DNA from: Collinsella aerofaciens
Lineage (GTDB): Bacteria > Actinomycetota > Coriobacteriia > Coriobacteriales > Coriobacteriaceae
Assembly (NCBI GenBank): GCA_048194085.1
Contig: DBFABM010000020.1
Coordinates: 1,692-65,691 of the forward strand
Direction: 5' to 3'
DNA: 64,000 bases
The notes below the pieces were generated by a model. The model saw only the letters and a program-made list of their open reading frames with translations. It ran no database searches and was not told the origin of the DNA. Shown one piece after another: positions 9,218-35,020 of this stretch. Every line of letters starts with the position of its first letter. Within the stretch, counting starts at the first letter, position 1. The position numbers were made by a program, and so were the translations under genes.

Positions 9218-9400
9218 GTCGCGCAAAGCTTCTGCATGAGAAAAAAATGGGGTTTTCAACAGAACTTCGTCCAGCTCTCGGCAAGCTTTTGGCCAGTTGG
9301 GGAGGACTGTTGAAAACTTGGCAGTCCGTTCGGCACCATTTTTGGCGCGTTCGCGCCAATGCGTGACTGACTGGGTTGAAATTCGTGTTTTCCTGTGCCT

Positions 9401-10528
9401 ATGAAAGATCTACTTTGTGACATATCGGCTTTTAGGTACTGGCGTTTGCCCCCTCAGGTCCGCGCTCTGTGTCCGCCGCTTCCACGACCGGAAGAAGACC
9501 GGCAGCGATATGATCTCGCCCGCAACCCGACGGCTGCGGTCGCGCTCGGTTTTCCGTTGTATACATTGGTTCAGACGAGAAACAAACGGACTTGTCCTGC
9601 CAGCATTAGGCAGCGGCTGTTTCTTGGTGAGCTTCCCAGGGAATCCGTACTGGAAACGGAGCATGGGTTTTTGATTACGTCTCCTCTACTGACGGTATTC
9701 ATCATGTCGCGGCATCTGACGGATCTTCAGCTTCTTTTGGTATTGGCGGAGATGTGTGGCTTGTTTGCGGTGTGCGCTCTGCCTGCGGCACTTGAGGCGG
9801 AGTTTTCGCGTGCAATTGATTCGGGCGCGATCTCGACAACGTTCGGTTGGGTGCGCTGCCCGTCCGAGGACGGCACCGCCTCAAATTTATGGCGTCGAGA
9901 CGCTTTGGTTTTGGGCGGAGACCTTGACCGTTTTTGTTCAGATGTTTGCGGGATACGTTACGGCAATAGATTTAGGACGGTGTCGCAACTCGTTCCATTG
10001 GGTGCCGCGTCGCCTTTTGAGGTCGAGGCGTATTTGCTACTTGCACTGCCGCGATCCCTGGGAGGCGAAGGTTTTTGCGACATAGAGCTTAATGTTGAAG
10101 TGATGCTAAGCACAAGTGCTCGAGCGATTGTGGAAAAGTCCCGTGTATATATCGACATACTTCTGTCTTCGCCGGACGGCAGGCGACAGGTGGCCATTGA
10201 ATGTCAGGGAAAGGCCTCGCACGGACGCGCAGGGGATGGCTTGCGTGACGCTGACCGCATGACGGCCCTTCAGGCCATGGGCTACGATGTGCTTCTCCTG
10301 ACACACAGACAGATATCGGATGAGGATAGATTCCGCGCGATCGTTAAGGCCATATGCAGGATGCTCGATGCTGAATATCGTGATAAAAGCTCAGATGAGC
10401 AAAGGGCTGAGACATTACTCCGGTCTGAACTATTCGTTGACTGGACAAAATTGGGAGTAATCGACGGGAAGATGCCCGTTAGACACAAAACGGCTCAATC
10501 GTGGACGGCTGCGGTTCTAAGTGAGTAG
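9401..10528 (+). CDS. Hypothetical protein with C-terminal Vsr/DUF559-like (PD-(D/E)xK) endonuclease domain
   Basis: ATG 9401. The C-terminus VYIDILLS..RQVAIECQGKASHGRAGDGLRDADRMTALQAMGYDVLLLTHRQI resembles DUF559/very-short-patch-repair endonuclease folds. GC is visibly lower than in the neighbours. The stop codon lies in MITE copy B. Confidence 0.65.
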   Translation: MKDLLCDISAFRYWRLPPQVRALCPPLPRPEEDRQRYDLARNPTAAVALGFPLYTLVQTRNKRTCPASIRQRLFLGELPRESVLETEHGFLITSPLLTVFIMSRHLTDLQLLLVLAEMCGLFAVCALPAALEAEFSRAIDSGAISTTFGWVRCPSEDGTASNLWRRDALVLGGDLDRFCSDVCGIRYGNRFRTVSQLVPLGAASPFEVEAYLLLALPRSLGGEGFCDIELNVEVMLSTSARAIVEKSRVYIDILLSSPDGRRQVAIECQGKASHGRAGDGLRDADRMTALQAMGYDVLLLTHRQISDEDRFRAIVKAICRMLDAEYRDKSSDEQRAETLLRSELFVDWTKLGVIDGKMPVRHKTAQSWTAAVLSE

Positions 10529-15596: not shown

Positions 15597-17354
15597 ATGA
15601 ACGAGATCAAGTGCCCGCATTGCGGCGAAGTTTTTAAGGTCGATGCGTCCGGCTATGCGGATATCGTCAAGCAAGTGCGCGATGCCGAGTTCTCGCGCGA
15701 TCTTGATGAGCGCGTAGCGGCGGCTCGACGCGAGGGCGAGCAGGCGCTGGAGCTTGAGCGTTCGCGTTCGGCGTCTGCCCTGCAGGAGGCGGAGTCTCAA
15801 CGCGACGCTCAGCTTGTCGAGCAGAAGAACGCTGCGGCGCAGGAGTTGGCACAAGAGGTTGCCAAGCGCGATGCTGAGCTTGCCGAGCTGCGCGCCAAGC
15901 TCGAGGGCGCTGCCGCAGAGCGCGAGAGTGCAAGCCAGCGCGCGGCGGTTGAGGCCCGCGCCGATGCTCAAAAGGAGAATGCCGAGCTGCAGCGCGAGAT
16001 CGACAACCTGCGTGCGCAGCTGGGGCGCAAGGATGACGAAGCCAAACTCGCCGAGGCGGCGGTGCGCAATGCCGCTCAAAACGACCTGTCCGCCCGCGAC
16101 GCTCAGATTGCCGAATTGCAGGCAAAGCTCTCCGCGGCGGATAAAGCCCAGGAGATGGCGCTTGCCGCCGCTGCGGCTGAGTCGAAACGCGAACTCGATG
16201 CCGCTCGCAGCGAGGCCGAGCGCGCGCTTGCTGACTATCGAGTGAAGGTACAGGAGAAGTTTTCCGCCGCAAAGACTCAGTCCATGCGCGAGGCCGAGGG
16301 CCTTCGTGCACAGCTTCGTGAGCAAGATCTTTCTGCAAAAATGGAGCTATCGAAGGCGGTCGCCGCGGCGGAGCGAGAGCGCGATGAGGCACGTGCCAAG
16401 CTGACGAGCGAGCTGGCGGTGCGCGATTCTCGCGAGGAGCAAGCCAAGGCGGCACACGAGCTCGAGCTTGCGCAGGCCAAGCGCGCGAGCGATGACCTGA
16501 TTCGCTACAAGGATGAAGAGATTGAGCGTCTTAAGGACATGAAGGTACGCCTGTCCACCAAGATGGTGGGCGAGTCGCTCGAGCAGCACTGCGAGACCGA
16601 GTTCAATCGCCTGCGCATGACGGCGTTTCCCAACGCGTACTTCGAGAAAGATAACGATGTGTCCGAGGGCACCAAGGGCGACTTTATCTTCCGCGAGTGC
16701 GACGCGAGCGGCAACGAGGTCATTTCGATTATGTTCGAGATGAAAAACGAGAACGACGAGACCGCGACCAAGCACAAAAACGAGGACTTCTTTAAGAAAC
16801 TCGATCACGATCGTCGCCAGAAAGGCTGTGAGTACGCGGTGCTCTGCACACTGCTCGAGCCCGAAAGCGAGCTCTATAACGCAGGGATAGTCGACGTGAG
16901 CTATCGCTACGAGAAGATGTACGTGATTCGCCCGCAATTTTTCATCCCCATGATTACACTTCTTCGCAACGCCGCCATGGGTTCGTTGCGTTATAAGCAG
17001 GAGCTGGCGGAGTACAAACAGCAGAATATCGACGTTACGAACTTCGAAGCCAAGATGGAAAAGTTCAAGAACGATTTCGGTCGCAACTACGAGATCGCGA
17101 GCCGCAAGTTCCAAACGGCGATCGATGAGATCGACAAGACGATTAGCCATCTGCAGAAAACCAAGGAGGCGTTGCTGTCCTCCGAGAACAATCTGCGCCT
17201 AGCCAACAAGAAGGCCGACGATCTTACCATTCGCAAGCTCACGTGGGGCAACAAGACCATGAAGGCGGCGTTTGACGAGGCGCGCGGGGCTGCGCCAGAG
17301 ACAAACGATGAGCCCGCCGAGGCGGATTCGTATGAGGTCGAGGACGCCGAGTAA
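15597..17354 (+). CDS. DUF2130-family protein (Zn-ribbon, long Ala/Glu coiled coil, PD-(D/E)xK-like C-terminal domain)
   Basis: N-terminus [29 protein letters not shown]. About 300 aa of coiled coil. C-terminal KGDFIFRE...[10 protein letters not shown] forms a D..ExK arrangement. Confidence 0.75.
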
Positions 17355-17432: not shown

Positions 17433-20114
17433 CTAGTCCTCGAGCAGGTCCTCGATAAAGCCGACGCGGTAGTTTTTGAAGATGACCTCGCCACCGTCTT
17501 GCGTGGCGTCCAGATCGACATCGCCCATGATGCCAAAATCGTGGTCGCCATCCTCGTCGGCAAAGATCTGGTGCACGTGCCATACGTGCGCGGTCTTCTC
17601 GCCGGACTCGTCAATGGAAAACATCGCGGCGCTGCGGGCATCTCCGTCGGTGAGGATCTCCTCGTGCTGCTCATGGTAGGCATCGAGCGCCTTTTGCCAG
17701 CGGATTTCGCTCATGCCCCAGTCGTCGTCGAGCTCGCCCAGGTCGCGAACGTGCTCGCGAGCGGCAAGGGTCACGCGGCGGAAGAGCGCGTTGCGCACCA
17801 ACAGCGTGCAGCCGCGGCGGTCCGCCACGACCTCGTCGATGCCCTGCGGCGGCGCGGCGTCGAGGGCTGCCGGGTTGCCGGCGTTCTCCCACTCGTCCAC
17901 CAGGCTCGAGTCCACCGAGCGCACCACAAAGCCCAGCCACGAGATAATGTCGCGCAGGCGCTCGTCGCGCTTCTCGATGGGCACGGTGCGGTCGAGTGAA
18001 CGGTAGGCCTCGGCTAGGTAGCGCAGCAGAATGCCCTCGGAGCGGGCGATGCCGAGCTTTTGAATGTAGCCCTTAAAATCGCTCGCGCTTTCCAGCATAT
18101 CGCGCAGGACGCTCTTGGGAGAGAGCTGATAGTCGTTTGCCCAGGGCACTTCCTGGCAGTACTTGTCAAAGGCGGCGTCGAGCAAATCCTCGAGCGGCTT
18201 TTCGTACGTGACGTCTTGAATGCGCTCCAAGCGCTCCTCATACTCGACGCCGTCAGCCTTCATTTCGGCCATCGCGCGGTCGCGCGCAGCGCGCTCCTGT
18301 GCGCGCAGCACCTGCTTGGGGTCCTCGAGCGTTGCCTCGACCATCGAGATCAGATCCATGGTATAGGTCTCGCTCTCGGGATCGAGCAGCTCCAACGCGG
18401 CAAGCAAGAACGGCGAGAGCGGCTGATCGAGCGCAAAGTCCTCGGGCAGGTCGACCGTTAGCGCATAGTCGATGTCCGGCGCGGCGTCAGTCGGGGCGTC
18501 GGGTGCGGGCGGCACCTCGGTGCGAACGACGACGCCGGAATCGATGAGTGTGGCGAAGATCTCGTCGGCACGAACCTCGAGCTTGGCCTTTTCCTCGGGG
18601 GTCTGCAGGCTCGTCTCGATGAGGTCGTGTACGCGGGTTCGGGCATCGCCGCCCTGCTCGACCACGCTAATCACCATGGAGTGCGTGATGCGCAGGCGCG
18701 GCTTGAGCGTCTCGGGCTGCGTCTCGATCAGGCGCTCAAAGGTCTGCTTGTTCCAGGTGACAAAGCCCTCGGGGGCCTTTTTCTTTTTAATCTTACGGAG
18801 TTTTTTGGGGTCGTCGCCCGCCTTGGCCATGAGCTTGGCGTTCTCGATCTCGTGCTCGGGTGCCTCGGCAATTACCATGCCCTCGGTATCAAAGCCAGAG
18901 CGACCGGCGCGACCGGCGATCTGATGGAACTCGCGGGCGCGCAGGCGACGCATCTTGTAGCCGTCGAACTTGGTGAGCGCGGTGAGCACCACAGTATGGA
19001 TGGGTACGTTGATGCCGACGCCGAGTGTGTCGGTGCCGCAAATGACGGGCAACAGGCCCTGCTGCGCCAGGCGCTCGACCAGTAGGCGATAGCGCGGCAA
19101 CATGCCAGCATGGTGCACGCCGACGCCGCAGCCGAGCAAGCGCTTGAGAATCTTGCCGAAGGCCGTCGAGAAGCTCGTGCCCTTGGCCGCCTCCTTGATG
19201 GCCTCGCGCTGCTCCTTGCTGGCAATGCCAAAGTTGGCGAGCGACTGTGCCGTCGCAAGGGCGGCATCCTGGCTAAAGTGCACGATATAGAGCGGGGCCT
19301 CTCCACGGCGCATGGCGAGCTCGACGGTGCCCTCGAGCGAGGTCGTCACGTAGTCGTAGCTCAGCGGCACGGGGCGCGGGGCATCGACGACTAAGTCGCA
19401 GGTAGCGCCGGTGTGTTCCTCGAGTGAGGCGGCGATGGCAGTGACATCGCCGAGCGTGGCGCTCATGAGCATGAATTGCGTGTGAGGCAGGGTGAGCAGC
19501 GGCACCTGCCAGGCCCAACCGCGATCAGGGTCGGCAAAGTAGTGGAACTCGTCCATGGCGACGCAGCCAACATCGGCATCTTCGCCCTCGCGCAGTGCGT
19601 CGTTGGCAAGGATCTCTGCCGTGCAGCAGATGACGGGCGCCTTGGTGTTGATGTGCGTGTCGCCGGTGATCATACCGACGTTATCGCGGCCGAGCACCTG
19701 TACCAGGTCGAAGAACTTTTCGCTGACCAGAGCCTTGATAGGAGCCGTGTAGTAGCAGCGTTTGCCCTGCGCCATGCCCATAAAGAGCATGCCCAGCGCG
19801 ACGAGCGACTTGCCCGATCCGGTCGGCGTGCCCAAAATGACGTGATCGCCGGCGGCCAGGTCCATGAGGGCCTCTTCTTGGTGATCCCACAGCTCAATGC
19901 CACGGTCGCTCGTCCATTCAAAGAAGCGTTCGAAGGCCTGATCGGGCGTGAGCCATGGTTCGGGCTCACTGCCATCCTCGGGCTCCCACCAGGCGGGGGA
20001 GAGCGCGCCGAGCGAGCCGAACTCGGCTTCGGTTCCCGTGCCGCCCGAGAATGAACTGGCGGCGCCGGCGCCGGAGACGGTGCCGGCGGCGGTATCTGTC
20101 GTGGTCTGTGCCAT
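17433..20114 (-). CDS. Ski2-like DEAD/DEAH-box helicase with DUF3516-type C-terminal region
   Basis: Start ATG 20114 (MAQTTTDT). GTPTGSGKS Walker A, MDEFH, SATLG, QIAGRAGRSG. Long actinobacterial-type C-terminal extension. Confidence 0.85.
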   Translation of the reverse strand: MAQTTTDTAAGTVSGAGAASSFSGGTGTEAEFGSLGALSPAWWEPEDGSEPEPWLTPDQAFERFFEWTSDRGIELWDHQEEALMDLAAGDHVILGTPTGSGKSLVALGMLFMGMAQGKRCYYTAPIKALVSEKFFDLVQVLGRDNVGMITGDTHINTKAPVICCTAEILANDALREGEDADVGCVAMDEFHYFADPDRGWAWQVPLLTLPHTQFMLMSATLGDVTAIAASLEEHTGATCDLVVDAPRPVPLSYDYVTTSLEGTVELAMRRGEAPLYIVHFSQDAALATAQSLANFGIASKEQREAIKEAAKGTSFSTAFGKILKRLLGCGVGVHHAGMLPRYRLLVERLAQQGLLPVICGTDTLGVGINVPIHTVVLTALTKFDGYKMRRLRAREFHQIAGRAGRSGFDTEGMVIAEAPEHEIENAKLMAKAGDDPKKLRKIKKKKAPEGFVTWNKQTFERLIETQPETLKPRLRITHSMVISVVEQGGDARTRVHDLIETSLQTPEEKAKLEVRADEIFATLIDSGVVVRTEVPPAPDAPTDAAPDIDYALTVDLPEDFALDQPLSPFLLAALELLDPESETYTMDLISMVEATLEDPKQVLRAQERAARDRAMAEMKADGVEYEERLERIQDVTYEKPLEDLLDAAFDKYCQEVPWANDYQLSPKSVLRDMLESASDFKGYIQKLGIARSEGILLRYLAEAYRSLDRTVPIEKRDERLRDIISWLGFVVRSVDSSLVDEWENAGNPAALDAAPPQGIDEVVADRRGCTLLVRNALFRRVTLAAREHVRDLGELDDDWGMSEIRWQKALDAYHEQHEEILTDGDARSAAMFSIDESGEKTAHVWHVHQIFADEDGDHDFGIMGDVDLDATQDGGEVIFKNYRVGFIEDLLED

Positions 20115-20237
20115 GTGGTTGCTTTCTCTCGCGATTGTCCGCCAACTATTATGGCGTAGCGGCGGCGTGGGGTGCCAGCGCGCGAGAAAATGCAGGAAAT
20201 GGGCGTTCTGTCCGGCCGTTTGGTGCGGTTGCCAGCT

Positions 20238-20356
20238 AAGTGAGTAGACTTTTTGCGATATTGCGAGCACATGGCTTTTGCGCAAGGGCTCTACCTGCGG
20301 TTTTATGTTTCACTATGCGGGCTGTGCTTGGCTATTGCAAAAAAGTCTACTCACTT
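20238..20356. mobile_element. MITE-like 119-bp element, copy C
   Basis: AAGTGAGTAGACTTTTTGC...GCAAAAAAGTCTACTCACTT, TA-flanked, with centre CTACCTGCGGTTTT. Lies between the helicase start and the trmB stop. Confidence 0.8.
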
Positions 20357-22254: not shown

Positions 22255-22521
22255 GGCGCGGGACTCCCTCCGTTGGCGGTGCGGAATAAACAGTACGACC
22301 ATACTACCGTTAACGCCGCAACGGGGACAACCGAGCCGTGGGTCATTGCTTTGTTTGGACACATTTCCGCAGCTCATATGCACCCGCAACCGCCGGTTGT
22401 CAAAAAACTCACTAGAATAGGTGGCATGCTTTTGGCGGTGGCGGATAGATTTTTAACTGTGCAAGGCGCCTTAAGAACAAAAACGGTCCGGCGGCACGGC
22501 TGGCATCACATAGGAGGAACC

Positions 22522-23244
22522 ATGAATGTAGAAACTGCGCAGCGGCTCGCCGACCTTCGTCGCAGCAAGGGTTTTAGCCAAGAAGGGCTGGCGCGAAAGC
22601 TGGGGCTGTCGCGCCAGGCAGTCAGTAAATGGGAGCGCGCGGAGAGCTCGCCCGATACCGAGAACCTAATCTCGCTCGCCAAACTCTATGGCGTGAGCCT
22701 GGACGAGCTGCTCAATCCGAGCGACGAGATCGAGGACGATATCGAGTTTGAGAACGAGGACCGCGCCCGTCAGCGCGAGGCCGAGGCGGCAGAGCGTGCT
22801 CGCACCCATGAGGCGGCGGCGCGCGCTACCGAGGCGGCAACACAGGCGAGTGATGCTGCGGCCAAGGCGGCGCAAGCGGCAAGCTGGAGTGCGCAGGCCG
22901 CCAATGCCGCTACGGCGCAGGCGACGAGTGGCACCGCGGTTGGCTCGACTCCGGTGAAGGGCCCGTTCCAGTCGTTCCCGTATTGGGCCGTGTGTTGGCT
23001 ACTGTTCTTTTTGCTGATGTTCCTGTTTGGTGCCGGTCCCTTTGCCGCGCTGATCTTCTTTACGATCCCCATCTATCACTGGGTGGCGCGTGCGCTCGAT
23101 GGCGATTGGGCGCGCGGGGATATCCAGGTTGGTCCGGCGCCGGCGGTCGCTAGGACTAAGGGGGAGGACGTTTTCACAGCGGTTGACGCTGACATGGCTG
23201 CCGCGACCACCGCTGAGTCGAGTGCCAAAGAAGGTGATGAATGA
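22522..23244 (+). CDS. XRE-family HTH protein with Ala-rich linker and C-terminal membrane domain
   Basis: ATG 22522 after AGGAGG (22512-22517). RLADLRRSKGFSQEGLARKLGLSRQAVSKWE HTH. Two hydrophobic segments (YWAVCWLLFFLLMFLF, FAALIFFTIPIY). Confidence 0.8.
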   Translation: MNVETAQRLADLRRSKGFSQEGLARKLGLSRQAVSKWERAESSPDTENLISLAKLYGVSLDELLNPSDEIEDDIEFENEDRARQREAEAAERARTHEAAARATEAATQASDAAAKAAQAASWSAQAANAATAQATSGTAVGSTPVKGPFQSFPYWAVCWLLFFLLMFLFGAGPFAALIFFTIPIYHWVARALDGDWARGDIQVGPAPAVARTKGEDVFTAVDADMAAATTAESSAKEGDE

Positions 23245-24140
23245 TGAAGCTTTCACATGAATCCAAGGTACGCTTGGGCGTTGGCATCGGAGCGTTTGTG
23301 CTCATCATTGGGCTTGCCTTTGGCATTTCGCGGACATTGATTCATTTTGATGGTCCGTGGGATCTCGACGATGTTGTATCCGGCTTCTCTGGTATGGACG
23401 ATGCGGTTGACGAGGACGATCTTTTGGATGGCGGTAACTATTCCGCTCGGCCTCAGCAGCTTTCGAGCACGACTTTTGACGAAGACGCGTTCCAATCGCT
23501 CGACTTGGATGTGACGTCGGGGACGGTCGAGGTTAAACGTGTCTCTGGCGGACCGGTACGTGTCATCGAAAGCGGGCGCGTTGCAAAGGGGGCGTCTGCT
23601 TCCGATGCCGCCACTCAGAATCTGGTTAAGATCGAGGGCTCTACGCTCAAGATTCGCCAGTTCGATTGCGATGACGAGCGCGCCCATGACCGTAAGGTCA
23701 CCATTGAACTGCCGCGTGAGCTTGCCGATAACATGATGGGCATTACGGCAAACGTGGGGTTGGGAGACCTGACGGTCGCGGACATTGCGTGCCACGACTT
23801 TGATTTGACGTTGGACTCGGGAGACGTTGAGTTTACGGGCACCGTGACCGATACCCTGAATGCCGAGGTCGGTTCGGGCGATGTGACGTTCGAGCTCTAC
23901 CAGGCCCCCGCGAAGTCGATGGACGTGAGTGTGGGCTCGGGCGATGTGGAGATGACGGTTCCGAACTCGACGGGCTTTAAGGCGAGCCTCACCTTGGGCA
24001 GCGGCGACTTCGAGAGCGATTTCCTTCCGCTTGGCTACGACGGCGAGACCATTTTGAATCTTGAATTCGATAACGGCGATAAGTCTGCTACGTATCGTTT
24101 TGAGGTCGATTCGGGCGACATGTCGTTTGATCCGGAGTGA
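23241..24140 (+). CDS. DUF4097-like beta-strand-repeat protein with N-terminal membrane anchor
   Basis: Start overlaps the upstream stop (ATGA). TM segment LGVGIGAFVLIIGLAF. Repeated SGDV/GSGDV strands (TSGTVEV, DSGDVEF, GSGDVTF, GSGDVEM, GSGDFE, DSGDMSF). Confidence 0.7.
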   Translation: MMKLSHESKVRLGVGIGAFVLIIGLAFGISRTLIHFDGPWDLDDVVSGFSGMDDAVDEDDLLDGGNYSARPQQLSSTTFDEDAFQSLDLDVTSGTVEVKRVSGGPVRVIESGRVAKGASASDAATQNLVKIEGSTLKIRQFDCDDERAHDRKVTIELPRELADNMMGITANVGLGDLTVADIACHDFDLTLDSGDVEFTGTVTDTLNAEVGSGDVTFELYQAPAKSMDVSVGSGDVEMTVPNSTGFKASLTLGSGDFESDFLPLGYDGETILNLEFDNGDKSATYRFEVDSGDMSFDPE

Positions 24141-27021: not shown

Positions 27022-27048
27022 GTCTCCCCGTCCCAAAAAAGACTGGTT

Positions 27049-29493
27049 TTATGTGTGGTCGCGCCAGCTGCGGACGCGCTGCCTCATGCCCCCTATGTCG
27101 AGCACGCCTTCGGCAAAGCCCTTGCGTACGAGCTCTTCGGGAACAAACTCGTCATAGCGGTCAAAGTAAGGCACCTCGCCGGGATAGACGAGCTTGATGG
27201 GGTCGAAGTCCTTCTCGGCCTCGGCGGCGAGAACCTCAAAGAACATCTCCTCGTCGGCCTTCATCTTAAACTGCATAAAGTACGGGCGTGACGGGTCGAG
27301 CCCGCGAAGACCCAGCTCCGCGGCACATTTAATCTTGAGCATACGTTCGAGCGCCAGAAAGGCGTAGCTGCCCAACCAGGGGAAGAGCACCCAGGTATCG
27401 CCGCCCAGGTTGATGAGTGGCTTGGTCCCTGCGCCCGAAATCTCGGCCATATGGCGAGCCTGCGCCAAGCGGGCCCGCGCGTTACCCATAAGGTACGGAT
27501 ATGCCGCGTGCTCGTTGAGCGCCTTGCGCATGCGCTCGAGTACATGTGTGTTGATATCACCGGGGCAGTCGCCAAAGTAGGCCGGCACACGGCCCTTGAC
27601 CTGCGTGGCAAAGACGGTGTGACGCTTCCAGTCCACTTCCTCGACAATCCAGCAATGGCCGGCGATGGCAATGCGCTCACCGGGCGGGGGCGGGTTGACA
27701 ATCGTGCCCAGCTCGGCCGATTCGCTGCGAACGGTGAACTCCTCGTTTTCCTGGAACACGGCGTAGAACTTAAAGTTGTTGATGATGCGCTCGCCCGCGA
27801 GACCCACGATGAGTCCGCCGCCCTCGGTGACTTGGATATGGTCGATCTTAATGAGGTGACGCAGCAGTACGCGATAGTCATCGGCCGAGATGCGATGGAA
27901 ATAGCTGAGTGTGAGCACGCGCTGGGCAAGCTCTGCCGGCGTGAGCTCGCCGGTGCTGGCAAGCGTCGACATAGTCTGGTGGTAGAGTAGGCTGTAGGGG
28001 AGTCGATCGAGCTCGGGCGGCTCGACCCACTTATCCTCGCGATAGAGTTGTACGAGCGCGATACCCTGCAGGAGCTTCCACGGAATGGTTTCGGGCATCA
28101 TCGTGCGCGGCTCGGGCTCTTCCTCGCGCATGACAAACCACATCTCGGGCGGAAGATCGCGGCGTCCCGTGCGCCCCATGCGCTGCAAAAAGGAGCTGAC
28201 GGTAAACGGTGCATCGATCTGGAACGCGCGCTCCAGGCGACCGATGTCAATGCCGAGCTCCAGCGTGGAGGTGGTGACGGTTGTCTGTGCCTGTTCCTCG
28301 TCGCGCATGAGCTCCTCGGCGGTCTCGCGTAGCGATGCCGAGAGGTTGCCATGATGGATAAGGAAGCGGTCGGGCTCGTGCCGGCTTTCGCAGTAGCTGC
28401 GCAGCATGGAGCATACGGCCTCTGCCTCCTCGCGCGAGTTGGCAAAGACCAGGCACTTGCGGCCGCGGGTATGTTCAAAGATGTAGCCCATACCGGGGTC
28501 GGCGTTGTCGGGTGCGGTGTCGGTGGGGTTGAGCAGTGCCTGTTCGGTTGCCTGCGGGATGTCGACTTCGCCCTCGGGGGCTGAGGAAGTGCGACTGTCC
28601 TTGGGGGCAGCCTTGCCCCGTGCCTGCTCGCGACGTTGGCGGCGTTCCTCCTGTGGGAGTTGCCCGCTAGGGCGCATGCCTTGGGTGCTGACGGGCAGTG
28701 CCGCGGGTGGTGCCGTCTCAATGCGCTCGCATGCGAGCACCTCAGCTTCCTGCGGACCTGTGCTCTCGAATCCTCGCTGCTGTGCCTGGGGACCCGAGTT
28801 GTAGAAGTGCTCCATGGAGATGCGCCACACGCGGCGCGGCTCTTCAAAGCGTGGGATAACGCAGTCGCGCCCCGTTCCCTGTGAGAGAAAGGCACCCGTG
28901 CGCTCGGGGTCGCCGATGGTGGCCGAAAGGCCAATGCGTCGAGGTTGCACGCCGGCCATGCGCGAGAGTCGCTCGATAAGGCAGAGCGTCTGCCCGCCAC
29001 GGTCGCCGCGCATGAGCGAGTGGACCTCATCGATGACCACATAGCGCAGGTCGCAAAACATGCGCGGGATCGCCATGTGCTTATGGATTAAGAGCGCCTC
29101 GAGTGACTCGGGCGTAATCTGCAAGATGCCGTTCGGTTTTTTGATGAGCTTAGCCTTGTGCGACTGCGAGACATCGCCATGCCAGTGCCAGACAGGGATA
29201 TCGGCCTCTTCGCAGAGGTCATTGAGACGGACGAATTGATCATTGATGAGTGCCTTGAGGGGGCCAATGTAGAGGGCACCAACGCTTGCGGGCGGGTTCT
29301 CCCAAAACTCGGTCAGGATGGGAAAGAAGGCCGCTTCGGTTTTGCCGGAAGCTGTGGATGCCGTTAGGAGCACATTGTCTTGTGTGTTAAAGATGGCGTC
29401 TGCCGCCGCAACCTGGATAGAGCGCAGGCTCTCCCAATCGTGGGAGTAGATGAAGTCTTGGATAAACGGGGCGTAGCGGTCAAAGGCGTTCAC
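27049..29493 (-). CDS. Lhr/BrxHI-like DEAD/DEAH helicase; third gene of the TerB-ATPase-helicase (Shango SngC-like) operon
   Basis: Start set at GTG 29493, 4 nt after GAGAGGAGG (the TTG at 29535 is less likely). TASGKTEAAF, VIDEVH, LSATIG, TSTLELGIDIG, QRMGRTGRR. Contains a ~100-aa low-complexity insert. Confidence 0.85.
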   Translation of the reverse strand: MNAFDRYAPFIQDFIYSHDWESLRSIQVAAADAIFNTQDNVLLTASTASGKTEAAFFPILTEFWENPPASVGALYIGPLKALINDQFVRLNDLCEEADIPVWHWHGDVSQSHKAKLIKKPNGILQITPESLEALLIHKHMAIPRMFCDLRYVVIDEVHSLMRGDRGGQTLCLIERLSRMAGVQPRRIGLSATIGDPERTGAFLSQGTGRDCVIPRFEEPRRVWRISMEHFYNSGPQAQQRGFESTGPQEAEVLACERIETAPPAALPVSTQGMRPSGQLPQEERRQRREQARGKAAPKDSRTSSAPEGEVDIPQATEQALLNPTDTAPDNADPGMGYIFEHTRGRKCLVFANSREEAEAVCSMLRSYCESRHEPDRFLIHHGNLSASLRETAEELMRDEEQAQTTVTTSTLELGIDIGRLERAFQIDAPFTVSSFLQRMGRTGRRDLPPEMWFVMREEEPEPRTMMPETIPWKLLQGIALVQLYREDKWVEPPELDRLPYSLLYHQTMSTLASTGELTPAELAQRVLTLSYFHRISADDYRVLLRHLIKIDHIQVTEGGGLIVGLAGERIINNFKFYAVFQENEEFTVRSESAELGTIVNPPPPGERIAIAGHCWIVEEVDWKRHTVFATQVKGRVPAYFGDCPGDINTHVLERMRKALNEHAAYPYLMGNARARLAQARHMAEISGAGTKPLINLGGDTWVLFPWLGSYAFLALERMLKIKCAAELGLRGLDPSRPYFMQFKMKADEEMFFEVLAAEAEKDFDPIKLVYPGEVPYFDRYDEFVPEELVRKGFAEGVLDIGGMRQRVRSWRDHT

Positions 29494-29574
29494 GGGGCCT
29501 CCTCTCAAAAACGAATCTCTCAACGCGGCTGGCAACGGCTTGCTGCATTACAGTCTCAACGTTCGCCCAGATAA

Positions 29575-29611
29575 AACCTGCCAAAATAAACCTGTCCCTT
29601 TTTGGCAGGTT
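29575..29611 (-). terminator. Intra-operon hairpin (attenuator/terminator-like) overlapping the ATPase stop codon
   Basis: On the minus strand AACCTGCCAAAA..(13 nt)..TTTTGGCAGGTT followed by TTAT. Lies between the ATPase and helicase genes. Confidence 0.45.
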
Positions 29612-30914
29612 AGATGGTGAATTCGGCGAAGCTACGGTCGCCGCCTGCGGTGCCGGTGTCGCCTGTTGCTGCTGCCGGCACCAGCGCGTCGCCGCCGACG
29701 CTTTGCAGCAGCTCGGCTACGTTGGCGTCGGGGTTTTGGCATAGGATGTCGAGCAGCTCGATAAAGTCGCGAATGACTTCACGCGGCGTCAGATGTGTGT
29801 CGGCTCCCACACGACCGAACTCGATCTTGAGGAAGTCCACCAAGTCGTTCTCGGTAAGCGTGGGCGTCCAGCCAAAGTAGCCGGCGTGAATTTGCATGAG
29901 TTTTTCGATCAGCACCAGCAGCTCCTCGTAGGTGAGTGGCTGCAGACGGATGATGGGCGCGAGCATGTCCTTAAGGTCCTCGCGTGCAAAGCGGCCTTGA
30001 GCGAGTCGGCTGCGCAGGGCCTCGTAGGAGAACACGCCGCGGCGGCGGTCTTCGATGGAGGTTGGCGTGCCGCCCATGATCATGCCCAGGTACTGCGCCT
30101 TGCCCTGGAGTGTGTCGTTGTACATGGTCAGGATCTTCTCGTAGTTGTACTGGCGCGTGATCGCGTTGGGAATCTTATACAGATTCACGAGCTCGTCGAT
30201 GAGCACCAACATACCCTTGTAGCCGCTGCAGACCAAAAAACGCGCGATGAGCTTAACGTAGTCGTACCAGTCGTCGTCGCTGATGATGGTCGAGGAGCCC
30301 AGCTCGGCGCGAGCCTCGCTCTTGGTACGGTATTCGCCGCGGATCCATTTGGTCACGCGGCTCATGGCTTCTTCGTCGCCCTCGGATACGGCCGTGCGAT
30401 AGCGGCGGAGCATGCGGGTGAAGTCGAAGCCGTGGACCATTTCCTCGAGCGGGGCCAGTTGGGCATTGACGACCGACTCGTCGACGTCGGCGCACGAGGC
30501 GACCCAGCGATCAAGAATAAGGTTGAGCGCACCGCCCTCGGGGCGCGTCTTGGTCGATATATTGCGTATGAGCTCGCGGTAGGTGGCAAGGCCCTGCCCC
30601 TGACCGCCTTGCAGGCGGCGCTCGGGCGACAGGTCGGCATCAGCGACGACGAATCCCTCGCCCATGGCGTGCGTGCGGATGGTCTGGAGCAAAAAGCTCT
30701 TGCCGGCGCCGTAGCGACCGACCAGGAAGCGGAAACTCGCCCCACCGTCGGCGATGAGACTCAGATCGGTGAGCAGGGCGCGGATCTCGACCTCGCGCCC
30801 TACGGTAATGTAGGGAAGGCCGATGCGCGGGACCACGCCGCCCTTGAGCGAGTTGAGAATGACGGCAGCGACGCGCTTGGGCACGCGGGGTGCTGCGGAT
30901 GCGGTATCACTCAT
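29610..30914 (-). CDS. DUF2791/BrxD-type P-loop ATPase (Shango SngB-like)
   Basis: GRYGAGKSF Walker A, MLVLIDELV Walker B. N-terminal LNSLKGGVVPRIGLPYITVGRE typical of BrxD-like ATPases. Start overlaps the upstream gene by 8 nt. Confidence 0.8.
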   Translation of the reverse strand: MSDTASAAPRVPKRVAAVILNSLKGGVVPRIGLPYITVGREVEIRALLTDLSLIADGGASFRFLVGRYGAGKSFLLQTIRTHAMGEGFVVADADLSPERRLQGGQGQGLATYRELIRNISTKTRPEGGALNLILDRWVASCADVDESVVNAQLAPLEEMVHGFDFTRMLRRYRTAVSEGDEEAMSRVTKWIRGEYRTKSEARAELGSSTIISDDDWYDYVKLIARFLVCSGYKGMLVLIDELVNLYKIPNAITRQYNYEKILTMYNDTLQGKAQYLGMIMGGTPTSIEDRRRGVFSYEALRSRLAQGRFAREDLKDMLAPIIRLQPLTYEELLVLIEKLMQIHAGYFGWTPTLTENDLVDFLKIEFGRVGADTHLTPREVIRDFIELLDILCQNPDANVAELLQSVGGDALVPAAATGDTGTAGGDRSFAEFTI

Positions 30915-32667
30915 GGTCTAGGTATCCTCTCACGTCTGCTTCGTAGTCCTCAATAATCTGCGGCCCTGCCGCGCTAAATTCAATTACGGTGTCGCCCACC
31001 AGGTCAAAGAGCGCCTCGTTGATGGTATCGACGAGCATGTCCTCGCTCTGCCCCGATTGCACTACCGCCGATTCCGCCTGTACTGCGTTGTGCTCGAGCA
31101 GTGCGCTGAGATAGGCGTTTGCGGCAGGCGCGAGTTCGTTTGTGGCGTCAGCGGGCGCAGCAGCCGCGAACGCGGGCGTCGGCGCGAGAAGCGGTGCCAA
31201 GACACCAAACTGTTCGGTGGATATGGTCGGCTCGTCGGTCAAGTCCTGCCGAATGGGTGCCACGACCGGTTCGACAATCGCGTCGGCTACGGGCTCGGCT
31301 TCCGGTTGCCCTGAGTCCGCTGCCTCGGCTTCTGCGGATGCGTCGTCCTCGCGCTCTTCGTCGATCAAAAGCGCTTCGCGCGTTTGCGCAGCGGCGCTCC
31401 GAATGTGCCCCAGCTGACTCAGATCGATATCGATCTTGACGGGCTGGTGTGCGGCGTCCCACGAAAGCCATGCCACAATCTCGTCATCGATAATCTTGGC
31501 CAGATATTTGGGGACCTTTTCTTCCTTAAGGGGATGGGCGGGGTCCAGCGCCAGGCGCAGGCGTTGGTCGCAGGCGCGCATCATTTCACCGAGCTTGCTG
31601 CTCTTTTGCCTACTACCGTGGATACGCATGCATTCCCAAAAGCCGTTTTGGCAACGGTAGATATGGATAGGATCCAGGCGGTATTCGCAGTCCTCGTGGC
31701 GCTCGGGCGCAAAGAATACGGCCGAGGCAAACATGGTGTAGGGCATGGCCGTCTCCTCCCCAAATAAACTCGCCACGATGCCGGTCTTTCGGTGCGTGTC
31801 ATAGTAGCGCGCCATACGGACATACACGGCGCATGCCACGTGGCGCAGATCGCGGTGGTGGCTGCGGTCGAGCCGCGAGTTACTTAGGTTGTACGTGGAG
31901 AGGGCGTTGATGGCGGCCATGAGTCGCTCCTCGCGCACCTCATCGGGCGGAAGGGGGAGCGTGGGCTCGGAGGTTTTGCGACGTTTGGGGGTCTGGCCGG
32001 ACGGTGCCGGTGCCGGTACAAGGTCTCGTGCCGCGCGCCGCAGCTCGATAAGGGCGTTATCGAACATGACGGTTTTAGAGTCGCGAAGCAGCTTGGGGTC
32101 GAGCCCATGGAATACGGCGTAATCCTGCAACCACACGCGTGCAAACCGATCGATGCCGGGCTCGAAGGCGCGATAGGCATCCCAAAAAGCCTTGATCTTG
32201 TTAAAACCATCGAGCGGGTCATCTACGCCAATGCCGCAAATCAGCTCATAGAGATACAGAAAGGCAAAGGACGTAGACGTTTCCTCGACAGTTCCGCGGC
32301 GCACTTGGGCGCGCCAGGTAAAATAGCCGCGCAGCTGCCGATCGCTCATGGCGTTGTAGGTGGGAAAGTACGACTTAAAGGTGCCGTTGTAGGGGCAGTC
32401 GTCTTCAAAGTCGGCCATCAGCAGGCCTTGGCGGTAGAAAAGCTCGGCTTCCGAAAGCCAACGGCCCGCGCCGCCCTTGGGGTCATCCTGCCAGCGCGAT
32501 ATCTCGCGCATTTTACGGTACTGATCGGGGAGGAAATTCTGCATCTGTCGGCCGGTCTTGAGAATCGGCTCGTCTGCGTAGACCTCATGTGAGAAGCGAG
32601 CGGACTGATGGGTCCGGGCCTCGGCCATAATGCGCTCGATGAGCATCTTGATGTCCTGGTCGGCCAC
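30907..32667 (-). CDS. TerB-N / TerB-C domain protein (Shango SngA-like)
   Basis: GTG 32667 after GAGGAGGAG. N-terminal half is TerB-N-like (YFTWRAQVRRG, FAFLYLYELI). Acidic/Ala-rich linker. C-terminus MLVDTINEALFDLVGDTVIE..IIEDYE is TerB-C-like. Confidence 0.75.
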   Translation of the reverse strand: MADQDIKMLIERIMAEARTHQSARFSHEVYADEPILKTGRQMQNFLPDQYRKMREISRWQDDPKGGAGRWLSEAELFYRQGLLMADFEDDCPYNGTFKSYFPTYNAMSDRQLRGYFTWRAQVRRGTVEETSTSFAFLYLYELICGIGVDDPLDGFNKIKAFWDAYRAFEPGIDRFARVWLQDYAVFHGLDPKLLRDSKTVMFDNALIELRRAARDLVPAPAPSGQTPKRRKTSEPTLPLPPDEVREERLMAAINALSTYNLSNSRLDRSHHRDLRHVACAVYVRMARYYDTHRKTGIVASLFGEETAMPYTMFASAVFFAPERHEDCEYRLDPIHIYRCQNGFWECMRIHGSRQKSSKLGEMMRACDQRLRLALDPAHPLKEEKVPKYLAKIIDDEIVAWLSWDAAHQPVKIDIDLSQLGHIRSAAAQTREALLIDEEREDDASAEAEAADSGQPEAEPVADAIVEPVVAPIRQDLTDEPTISTEQFGVLAPLLAPTPAFAAAAPADATNELAPAANAYLSALLEHNAVQAESAVVQSGQSEDMLVDTINEALFDLVGDTVIEFSAAGPQIIEDYEADVRGYLDHE

Positions 32668-32754
32668 CGCTCCTCCTCTCGAACGCAGCTACGGCGACCT
32701 CATATCATAGCACAGCATCAAACAGATGTTCGAGATACCGCTGCGTTGATAGAT

Positions 32755-33589: not shown

Positions 33590-35020
33590 TCAGGTGGTTG
33601 TCGGGACATAGGGATAGTATTCAAAGCGCAGTGTCATAAGCCGCTGTGGGGATTCAATAGCCGCGGCGATGATATTGGCATCGCGGGCACGATCAAACCC
33701 TTCGAGTTCGATCTGATACGAGACGTCTTGCATAATGTCCAGACGTCGCCAGGCTAGGAGTGTGTCACCATCGAATTCTAAGGTCTTGCCTCCGTCTGGA
33801 GCAACGGCGTATAAACGCAGCTTGGCGGTGGTTGCAGGGTCGACAACCGTGACCTTTTTAATTTCGTTTCGAGTATTCTTGGCGCCCAACAAGGTGAGCA
33901 GTGTTGGGGCCACGACCTCGCCCGATGGCAAAAAGACGACTTCGATGGATTCAGGAAATGCGATGATGGCTGACTTGCGGACGGGCTGATTGGCGGCGGC
34001 AACTTCGATGTTCGCAGCGTCGATGACCTCTGTGTGGTCGAGCGCGGCAAGCACGCAGCAGTTACCTTCATCGATCTCTTGAGGATCAGCAAGCCCCAGA
34101 CTGTCCGCGAGCTCGGGATCGTTTGGATCGGCAGCGGGCTCATTCGGCGCTTCGAAAGAAGCTGGGACGCTGTTTGTCGGCGACGGCGTGTCGCCCGCAC
34201 CTGCTTCTTTATCCGCGCTCTCTTCTTGTATGGTTACGTTGATGGGTTCGTCGTTTGGGGGGAGCGTCTTGGCGTCAAGCGCGGAGGGGAGAATTCCGAT
34301 GGCTCCGGATCCGCGCCACTCCATTTCGAGAAGCGCCGGGTCGGCAAGAATGCGTTGCCTGCTTTGCGCGTGGGCATCGATTTCAATAGGGCCTGCCTCT
34401 ATCCCTCGTGTAAGGCTGAGTGATCCGGCTGGCTTCTCGAAATGAGCGTCTGTGTCTTTGGTGCTGACGGCGTAGAACAGCAGGGACGCTTCTCCCGCCG
34501 CGATGGCATCGGTGTCGGCTTTGGTCAGCCGCAACGATGCCGTGAATGAGAGGGTGGGCTGCGTGTCGTCGGCATTCGCGGCGGCGCAGCCCAGACATAT
34601 ACCGCCTCCTTTCTCGAAAAACGTACCGTCGAAGGCGACCTTCGCTCCGTTCGCCGAGTCATCGACCGAAGCGATGTCGATGCGCAGCTCTAAATTGCAT
34701 GGATCGCCATCTGCATCGAGCACAACCGAGCGCCACGTGCAGACGGCGCACCCCGCCTGGGAGCCGTTTGCCTTGTTCGAACGCTTGATATCCACGACTA
34801 TCGAGCCGTCCGTATTACGACGAAGGCATCCCGAGGTTGAGATCGCGGCCTGTGCGATCGAAAAACGCTTGCACGCAATGGCGCTCGACGGATTTGGTGC
34901 GGAACTTAGGGCTGCTGGTAAGGAGTCTGCCATGACGGGAGTCGCCCAAGCGGCGACAGGCGTTCCGGTTGCGAGCGCGCCGCAGAGTGCGACGACGGGC
35001 AAAAGGTTCTTCGATGCCAT
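33590..35020 (-). CDS. Secreted hypothetical protein (476 aa), last gene of the surface-protein operon
   Basis: AAGGAG RBS. Signal peptide MASKNLLPVVALCGALATGTPVAAWA. No family recognised, and no C-terminal anchor. Confidence 0.7.
   Translation of the reverse strand: MASKNLLPVVALCGALATGTPVAAWATPVMADSLPAALSSAPNPSSAIACKRFSIAQAAISTSGCLRRNTDGSIVVDIKRSNKANGSQAGCAVCTWRSVVLDADGDPCNLELRIDIASVDDSANGAKVAFDGTFFEKGGGICLGCAAANADDTQPTLSFTASLRLTKADTDAIAAGEASLLFYAVSTKDTDAHFEKPAGSLSLTRGIEAGPIEIDAHAQSRQRILADPALLEMEWRGSGAIGILPSALDAKTLPPNDEPINVTIQEESADKEAGAGDTPSPTNSVPASFEAPNEPAADPNDPELADSLGLADPQEIDEGNCCVLAALDHTEVIDAANIEVAAANQPVRKSAIIAFPESIEVVFLPSGEVVAPTLLTLLGAKNTRNEIKKVTVVDPATTAKLRLYAVAPDGGKTLEFDGDTLLAWRRLDIMQDVSYQIELEGFDRARDANIIAAAIESPQRLMTLRFEYYPYVPTTT

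Follow-up and report, generated by a model that had tools for sequence, protein, structure and literature searches.

In a 64,000-nucleotide stretch of Collinsella aerofaciens DNA (assembly GCA_048194085.1, contig DBFABM010000020.1, positions 1,692 to 65,691; hereafter, the window), we identified three adjacent genes that, by their sequence, constitute a canonical, complete and intact Shango system, sngA-sngB-sngC. We infer a mechanism in which SngA and SngB act as a sensor/loader that directs the SngC translocase against foreign DNA, and we assign a probability of about 0.6 to this reading of the locus as a vertically inherited chromosomal Shango. The assignment to Shango is routine; the unusual part is the order-wide fixation of the system in the core genome, with a conservation like that of PurL, which had been flagged before in one sentence only.

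The sngA-sngB-sngC genes and their products

The ORF listing of the window revealed three intact open reading frames (ORFs) at 27049-32667, all on the minus strand and in the order sngA-sngB-sngC (Table 1), in agreement with the original prediction of three tightly packed, co-directional genes. The start of sngB lies over the stop of sngA, and the predicted 8-nt overlap was confirmed (ATGAGTGA, 30907-30914). A gap of 116 nt separates sngB from sngC, while 87 nt separate the DUF554 gene from sngA, which has a strong ribosome-binding site (RBS; GAGAGGAGGAG, 32670-32680). The longest ORF for sngC spans 27049-29535, with a TTG start at 29535. We preferred the GTG at 29493, which had also been chosen previously, because it is preceded by the RBS GAGAGGAGG (29498-29506) and because the orthologues begin there with M-x-x-FDRYAPF. 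All the motifs initially quoted for these proteins are present in the translations: YFTWRAQVRRG, FAFLYLYELI, MLVDTINEALFDLVGDTVIE and IIEDYE in SngA; GRYGAGKSF and VLIDELV in SngB; and TASGKTEAAF, VIDEVH, LSATIG and QRMGRTGRR in SngC.

Next to these motifs, the family profiles were decisive. The anticipated TerB_N, TerB_C and DUF2791-type domains all gave significant Pfam matches: TerB_N (5.4e-32, aa 65-195) and TerB_C (1.3e-14, aa 407-580) in SngA, and BrxC_BrxD (2.3e-149) in SngB. SngC matched DEAD (4e-26) and Helicase_C (1.1e-17). With PADLOC, the SngA profile scored 5.6e-77 and was covered from position 53 to 525 of 528. SngB scored 2.1e-169 with the SngB profile versus 2.8e-39 with BrxD, and SngC 1.9e-274 with the SngC profile (positions 4-716 of 720) versus 2.5e-122 with BrxHI. 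The earlier calls of a BrxD/DUF2791-type ATPase and an Lhr/BrxHI-like helicase thus held at the level of the family, with the Shango profiles scoring far above BrxD and BrxHI. Since gene order, domain content and profile matches all correspond to Shango, the assignment first made from gene order and domain set was borne out. Every testable feature of membership was found (three proteins, intact motifs and an adjacent, co-directional A-B-C order). An accessory distribution, on islands or mobile genetic elements, which is typical though not strictly defining for Shango, was not observed at the window locus. When SngA, SngB and SngC were compared with the family profiles of Pfam, PADLOC, NCBIfam and PHROGs, none of them showed a nuclease, toxin, protease or modification domain. 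A 2012 paper by Anantharaman, Iyer and Aravind reportedly treats the TerB-N/TerB-C domains.

The AlphaFold2 (AF2) model of SngA, built from an alignment of 136 diverse sequences, had a predicted local distance difference test score (pLDDT) of 87.6. In this prediction, TerB_N is helical and precedes a central alpha/beta domain (aa ~243-449), after which come about 60 acidic, disordered residues (disorder at aa 452-509) and a C-terminal H-H-H-hairpin-H module (aa 514-584). A Foldseek search of this model against PDB and BFVD returned no match at E <= 0.001, and thus no effector fold was identified in SngA. Weak matches of about 70 columns, below significance, were recurrently to LysR-type winged-helix DNA-binding domains; as Foldseek gives no query coordinates, their placement on the C-terminal module is presumptive. 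A sequence search of PDB with SngA found nothing, tblastn against a phage collection found no homologues, and PHROGs holds no family for either SngA or SngB. In the Pfam scan, SngA matched TerB_N and TerB_C only, nothing else reaching E 0.01, and the TerB core domain was unmatched. The C-terminus of SngA (Table 1), a winged-helix-like TerB_C tail that follows the acidic linker, is a possible docking element.

In SngB, the Walker A (GRYGxGKSF), Walker B (DELVN) and arginine (EDRRRGV) motifs were invariant in 9 orthologues. Its score against the NCBIfam model NF033438 (BREX_BrxD) was 134.4 bits, below the cut-off of 350, and its only match in a sequence search of PDB was a spurious one to a repeat protein. 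Homologues of SngB are present on 696 plasmids, 542 of which are conjugative. The C-terminus of SngB ends, after a variable Gly/Ala linker, in a conserved tail (FAEFTI in the window), which could also serve in docking.

The superfamily 2 (SF2) motifs I, II (DEVH), III (SAT) and VI (QRMGRTGRR) of SngC were invariant among orthologues. The protein carries a lineage-variable disordered insert (aa ~240-325), and its variability in close relatives is confined to aa 241-320; the C-terminal half, which can be aligned with BrxHI, shows high conservation. The solved structures nearest to the helicase core are those of Lhr (5v9x, 4.9e-25; 7lhl) and MrfA (6znp), and searches of PDB with SngA, SngB and SngC returned no solved Shango component. 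SngC scored below the cut-off of all the NCBIfam Lhr-type models: TIGR04121 (193 versus 850 bits), PRK13767 (165 versus 849) and PRK09751 (84 versus 1496). The NCBIfam scores thus mark SngB and SngC as paralogues of these neighbouring families, not as members of them.

Fixation and vertical inheritance of the locus

We then asked how the locus is distributed, using 80 GTDB species representatives of the C. aerofaciens complex, about 70 of which were informative because their contigs reached far enough. Every one of these contigs carried sngC, sngB and sngA at the same site, with identities of 95-98%, 95-100% and 85-98%, respectively, and the only disruption was a frameshifted or split sngA in one metagenome-assembled genome (MAG). 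A metagenome scan anchored on the spermidine-synthase-like (SpdSyn-like) gene beside sngC provided 80 further loci, 77 of them informative. In 74 of the 80 (74 of the 77 informative), sngC directly adjoins the SpdSyn-like gene, and all three genes were full length in 44 of the 46 loci with enough sequence. Presence/absence polymorphism at this site, for which a comparison of related genomes had been proposed, was essentially not seen in the complex, in either the species representatives or the metagenome loci.

Two loci that resembled empty sites, L168 and L156, were rejected because they represented contig ends or the insertion of a major facilitator superfamily (MFS) gene. The one exception left is L115 (2182-7867; metagenome contig OUQG01003026.1, coverage 2.7x), the sole locus in which homology to the window stops exactly at 27048, just before the sngC stop. 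Beyond this junction are a YgiQ-type radical S-adenosylmethionine (SAM) gene (Radical_SAM_N and DUF3362) and then genes that by eye resemble those for CPBP proteases and ABC transporters. Either L115 is a chimeric assembly, or it comes from a Collinsella lineage that lacks Shango or is rearranged.

Separately, the junction between the SpdSyn-like gene and sngC is polymorphic for insertions. The window has none, with a gap of 27 nt; an insertion of ~2 kb is present in L007 (12785-14827), L067, L075, L162, L166, L171 and L168, and one of ~1.5 kb in L149 and L150. As read in L007 and L168, the 2-kb insertion encodes a 399-aa MFS transporter (Pfam MFS_1, 3.2e-24).

The trio is under strong purifying selection, and its synonymous divergence equals that of its flanks. 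The ratio of nonsynonymous to synonymous divergence (dN/dS) was 0.036 for SngC (synonymous divergence, dS, 0.35), 0.039 for SngB (dS 0.30) and 0.12 for SngA (dS 0.35), while the Elp3-like, SpdSyn-like and DUF554 flanks had dN/dS values of 0.05-0.09 and dS values of 0.26-0.28. Pairwise nucleotide distances of adjacent genes (L002-L081) were weakly correlated for all gene pairs (Spearman rho 0-0.55), which we attribute to pervasive short-tract homologous recombination among the Collinsella GTDB 'species'.

A direct homologue search with SngA yielded near-identical Collinsella sequences only, and more distant relatives were obtained from a search of 50% representatives. At 50% clustering, the SngA proteins of the C. 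aerofaciens complex form one cluster; the next relatives, among them Coriobacterium glomerans PW2 and further Collinsella MAGs, are 40-59% identical. In C. glomerans the gene order is PurL, SngA, SngB, SngC, SpdSyn-like, Elp3-like, a 275-aa gene, TrmB-like and the DUF3516 helicase. Both flanks of another relative (L085) match those of the window, with the FAD oxidase, electron transfer flavoprotein (ETF) and DUF554 genes on one side and PGA_cap, SpdSyn-like, Elp3-like and TrmB genes on the other. In Atopobiaceae (L090, and Thermophilibacter provencensis, L091), the order is HSP90, SpdSyn, (DUF554), SngA, SngB, one inserted gene and SngC; these loci were placed in the family through named SngC relatives (Paratractidigestivibacter, Olsenella and Thermophilibacter). 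Identity across these lineages was 67-80% for SngB, 63-82% for SngC, 70-84% for PurL, 60-65% for both the Elp3-like and the DUF554 proteins, and 44-52% for the SpdSyn-like protein.

Some relatives depart from this arrangement. A high-GC relative (L086, 14060-16475) has a complete sngC with two frameshifts, and a uracil phosphoribosyltransferase (UPRTase) gene between sngB and sngC. In L087, sngAB abut PurL and no sngC lies within reach; in L088, sngC is 5 kb off, still beside the SpdSyn-like gene. Given the two frameshifts in the sngC of L086 and the junction in L115 that lacks the trio, some lineages may be able to do without the locus. Most likely, the trio was already in place before Coriobacteriaceae and Atopobiaceae split, and it is maintained like a core gene set. 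The data are best read as vertical inheritance within an ancient block of Coriobacteriales genes rather than carriage on a mobile island. The behaviour expected of a defence island was not observed: the site is fixed, selection is purifying, the divergence is like that of the flanks and the synteny crosses families.

Proposed mechanism and alternative explanations

In our model, translation of sngA and sngB is coupled and their products act together, probably as a sensor/loader unit. SngA would supply the TerB_N helical domain, the central alpha/beta domain and a winged-helix-like TerB_C carried on a long acidic, disordered tether. SngB, catalytically intact as judged by its motifs, would be a BrxD-type, ORC/Cdc6-like AAA+ switch that controls, through its ATP cycle, when SngC is loaded or activated. 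Upon infection or another foreign-DNA cue, SngA-SngB would load or activate SngC, the putative Lhr/Ski2-like SF2 motor and effector, for which we adopt the 3'-to-5' direction of Lhr, a 3'-to-5' translocase (PMC8053096). SngC may then unwind or strip the replication or recombination intermediates of phages or of other invading DNA. The helicase motor is the likely effector because neither the profiles, run on all three proteins, nor the fold search, run on SngA, revealed a nuclease, toxin or modification domain.

Shango was named and validated in E. coli (Millman et al. 2022), and the trio in cDHS1 of P. aeruginosa PA14 reduces the efficiency of plating 10-100-fold (Johnson et al. 2023). In both systems the three families are those of the window trio, with identical order and orientation. 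The A-B-C order is also the same on a Clostridium estertheticum plasmid, where the genes lie beside a relaxase and IS110, and on an Aeromonas caviae plasmid. The Clostridium copy falls outside the Coriobacteriales group (SngB 60%, SngC 65% and SngA 28% identity) and the Aeromonas copy far outside it (43%, 34% and 19%, respectively). Unlike these other Shango systems, the window trio is fixed in a conserved housekeeping block, outside any variable hotspot or mobile element, has lineage-specific disordered regions (SngA aa 441-540, SngC aa ~240-325) and carries a 116-nt spacer with a conserved hairpin before sngC.

A parallel is the BrxD-BrxHI dyad of type 2 BREX (Pgl), which likewise combines a homologous ORC/Cdc6-type AAA+ ATPase with a homologous Ski2/Lhr-like helicase that has a BrxHI-like C-terminal region. 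BrxD has been proposed as the helicase loader for BrxHI, for which a winged helix-turn-helix, a HAS barrel and an Lhr-CTD-like DNA-binding domain are described (PMC12839542), and a loader-plus-helicase logic is plausible both for this dyad and for SngB-SngC. A functional analogy only can be drawn with Hachiman (HamAB), in which DNA surveillance and control of the immune output both fall to an SF2 helicase. Hachiman differs in having a dedicated nuclease effector, HamA, and none was detected in the Shango proteins here by profiles or, for SngA, by the fold search. In the tree of the Hachiman paper, SngC groups with BrxHI, DruE and DpdJ in an SF2 clade associated with defence.

Several observations weigh against a dedicated defence function. 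The anti-phage role of the window trio would follow by homology only from the tested systems of E. coli and P. aeruginosa, and no paper in the literature that we searched describes the mechanism of Shango. The neighbours profiled (~10 kb) included no other defence or mobile genes. In SngA, variability among close relatives is confined to aa 441-540, the disordered linker, and the folded domains show no diversifying signal. The AF2 model of SngC, from a low-diversity alignment of 26 sequences, had a pLDDT of 44, and the fold search was therefore run with SngA only. To these points we add the presence of the trio in all informative species representatives, its synteny in both Coriobacteriaceae and Atopobiaceae, and a conservation of SngB and SngC about equal to that of PurL, the identities of SngB to the window ranking as those of PurL do.

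These data fit the possibility that the TerB-N/BrxD-like/Lhr-like trio mainly performs housekeeping genome maintenance, such as repair or the processing of replication forks or R-loops, with phage defence absent or secondary. Although unlikely in our assessment, this is a serious rival because of the evolutionary pattern and because Lhr and MrfA, the characterised helicases closest to SngC, work in DNA repair. Universal conservation with a core-like pattern had been set beforehand as pointing to a housekeeping role, and this is what we found among the relatives examined: the trio is fixed at one site, intact in essentially all of them, its dS equals that of the flanks with a dN/dS of 0.04-0.12, and its divergence tracks that of PurL. 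Furthermore, C. glomerans and further Coriobacteriaceae-like lineages share the PurL/DUF554/SpdSyn-like/Elp3-like/TrmB block, of which the SpdSyn-like and DUF554 genes survive as remnants in Atopobiaceae, and SngB and SngC are conserved above the Elp3-like, DUF554 and SpdSyn-like proteins. According to the HRGM2 preprint, most defence systems are accessory, and Shango in the core genomes of Actinobacteriota is mentioned, in one sentence, as an exception. The remark in the original prediction that no characterisation was known for Coriobacteriia needs to be qualified by this sentence; no experiment on a Shango of this class is known.

Against a maintenance role, phage protection by homologous trios has been measured in E. 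coli and P. aeruginosa, and elsewhere the family is patchy and plasmid-borne. The Lhr and MrfA/YprA repair helicases resemble sngC in being chromosomal and vertically inherited and give the best solved-structure matches to its core; however, SngC stays below every Lhr-type equivalog cut-off, its C-terminal half is BrxHI-like instead of an Lhr CTD tetramerisation module, and no Nei2- or MrfB-type partner accompanies it. The neighbouring genes have no link to DNA repair, and a frameshifted or displaced sngC is tolerated in some lineages. A core location is, moreover, compatible with defence, since the HRGM2 preprint also exempts restriction-modification and Cas systems from the accessory rule.

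A bolder version, which we regard as rather doubtful, is that the trio serves an order-wide core function of Coriobacteriales, as either a genome-maintenance machine or a permanently domesticated 'innate' immune module, with the mobile Shango systems of other phyla as its relatives. If this were true, the native substrate of Shango and its mechanism could be learned from the copy in Coriobacteriales.

The remaining two explanations were rejected. That the locus is a leftover of type 2 BREX, a BrxD-BrxHI dyad after the loss of PglX, PglZ, BrxC and PglW, would account for the PADLOC matches of SngB to BrxD and of SngC to BrxHI, which form a linked dyad in that system. We consider it barely credible: the Shango profiles score far higher, SngB stays below the BREX_BrxD threshold, and neither a methyltransferase nor PglZ, BrxC or PglW is encoded among the neighbours profiled (~10 kb) in the window or in the related loci examined. 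In addition, the dyad always has a TerB_N/TerB_C gene as its companion, and no such gene belongs to BREX. Very improbable, too, is a Ter-type (tellurite or metal) membrane stress-response module like that of the classical TerB proteins, to which the domain names TerB_N and TerB_C and the speculation in the literature that TerB proteins survey the membrane would point. The window gives no support for membrane surveillance through TerB, as the TerB core domain is not matched in SngA, and no TerC-, TerD- or TerZ-type neighbours were found. The partners of SngA are nucleic-acid motors, and its AF2 model predicts soluble helical and alpha/beta domains with a winged-helix-like tail, although transmembrane segments were not specifically tested.

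We thus favour the vertically inherited Shango system with a helicase effector. Purifying selection on a par with purine biosynthesis genes, at one chromosomal place, is rare for defence systems, and the locus offers a natural test of whether Shango serves immunity alone or the upkeep of the host genome as well. It also provides a deep set of vertically related sequences for the study of interaction surfaces and conserved tails, including the winged-helix module of SngA and the FAEFTI tail of SngB. In practice, nearly every strain of the C. aerofaciens complex should carry a Shango barrier, which is relevant to phage isolation or strain engineering.

Junction elements and neighbouring genes

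Table 1. Coordinates of the Shango genes, candidate regulatory elements and further features of the window.
Feature	Position	Strand	Description
sngA	30907-32667	-	586 aa, GTG start; TerB_N, central alpha/beta, acidic disordered linker, TerB_C
sngB	29610-30914	-	434 aa, ATG start; BrxD-type (DUF2791, ORC/Cdc6-clade) AAA+ ATPase
sngC	27049-29493	-	814 aa, GTG start; Lhr/BrxHI-like SF2 helicase
Candidate extended -10 promoter TGcTATGAT	32704-32712	-	read from sequence, in the DUF554-sngA gap
Hairpin CCTGCCAAAA-N13-TTTTGGCAGG, then TTTTAT	29571-29609	-	between the sngB stop and the sngC RBS; candidate partial terminator/attenuator
SngA C-terminus	30907-31125	-	TerB_C tail
SngB C-terminus	29610-29630	-	conserved tail
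476-aa protein	33590-35020	-	no Pfam/NCBIfam match
DUF4097 'toastrack' protein and adjacent XRE-type helix-turn-helix (HTH) gene	23241-24140 and 22273-23244	+	
377-aa ORF	9395-10528	+	sub-threshold REase_MTES_1575 match
DUF3516 DEXQ helicase	17433-20285	-	Suv3-like
DUF2130 protein	15597-17354	+	

Upstream of sngA, TGcTATGAT is a candidate promoter element. It was unchanged in 11 of the 12 commonest among 61 aligned related sequences, the one variant being TGtTATGAT. A simple sigma-70 scan did not flag it, and in consensus scans for sigma-70 promoters and terminators the sites were no more frequent than in shuffled sequence.

The hairpin and T-tract between sngB and sngC are a candidate partial terminator or attenuator. 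Its stem appears in the minimum free energy fold, and the hairpin is kept in 71 related loci of the C. aerofaciens complex, where the sequence just downstream diverges. The folding energy of the region was unexceptional (z = -0.34), and no compensatory changes in the stem were seen among the related loci. In other Coriobacteriales, unrelated genes are inserted at the sngB-sngC junction, encoding UPRTase, an amino-acid permease, hydrogenase and others. The conserved hairpin and these insertions at the same junction suggest that sngC is expressed semi-independently of sngAB.

One flank of the trio contains the Elp3-like radical-SAM/GNAT gene and the SpdSyn-like gene, and the other DUF554, so that the housekeeping character of both flanks, predicted together with the lack of a nearby integrase, was confirmed by annotation of the neighbours. 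No integrase, transposase or tRNA gene was found near the trio, neither Rfam families nor tRNAs were detected across the window, and the GC content is unremarkable. The Elp3-like flank is 96-98% identical to that of Collinsella genomes, mostly species representatives of the C. aerofaciens complex. Further neighbours include the DUF3516 DEXQ helicase, TrmB, the HTH/DUF4097 pair, and the FAD oxidase with ETF, with PurL and homoserine dehydrogenase more distant.

Some of these neighbours deserve mention in their own right. The 476-aa protein is hypervariable in close relatives (56-99% aa identity, dN/dS 0.33), as is the DUF4097 protein (70-98% identity, dN/dS 0.27); the genes around both are far less variable. 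The 377-aa ORF has a REase_MTES_1575 match of 8e-06 (26 bits versus a cut-off of 38), adjoins a GntR/aminotransferase-type regulator and lies in the part of the window with the lowest GC content (0.535-0.553, ~8-11 kb). Finally, the DUF3516 helicase and the DUF2130 protein are encoded near TrmB, and the helicase is kept at the equivalent position in C. glomerans (L083).

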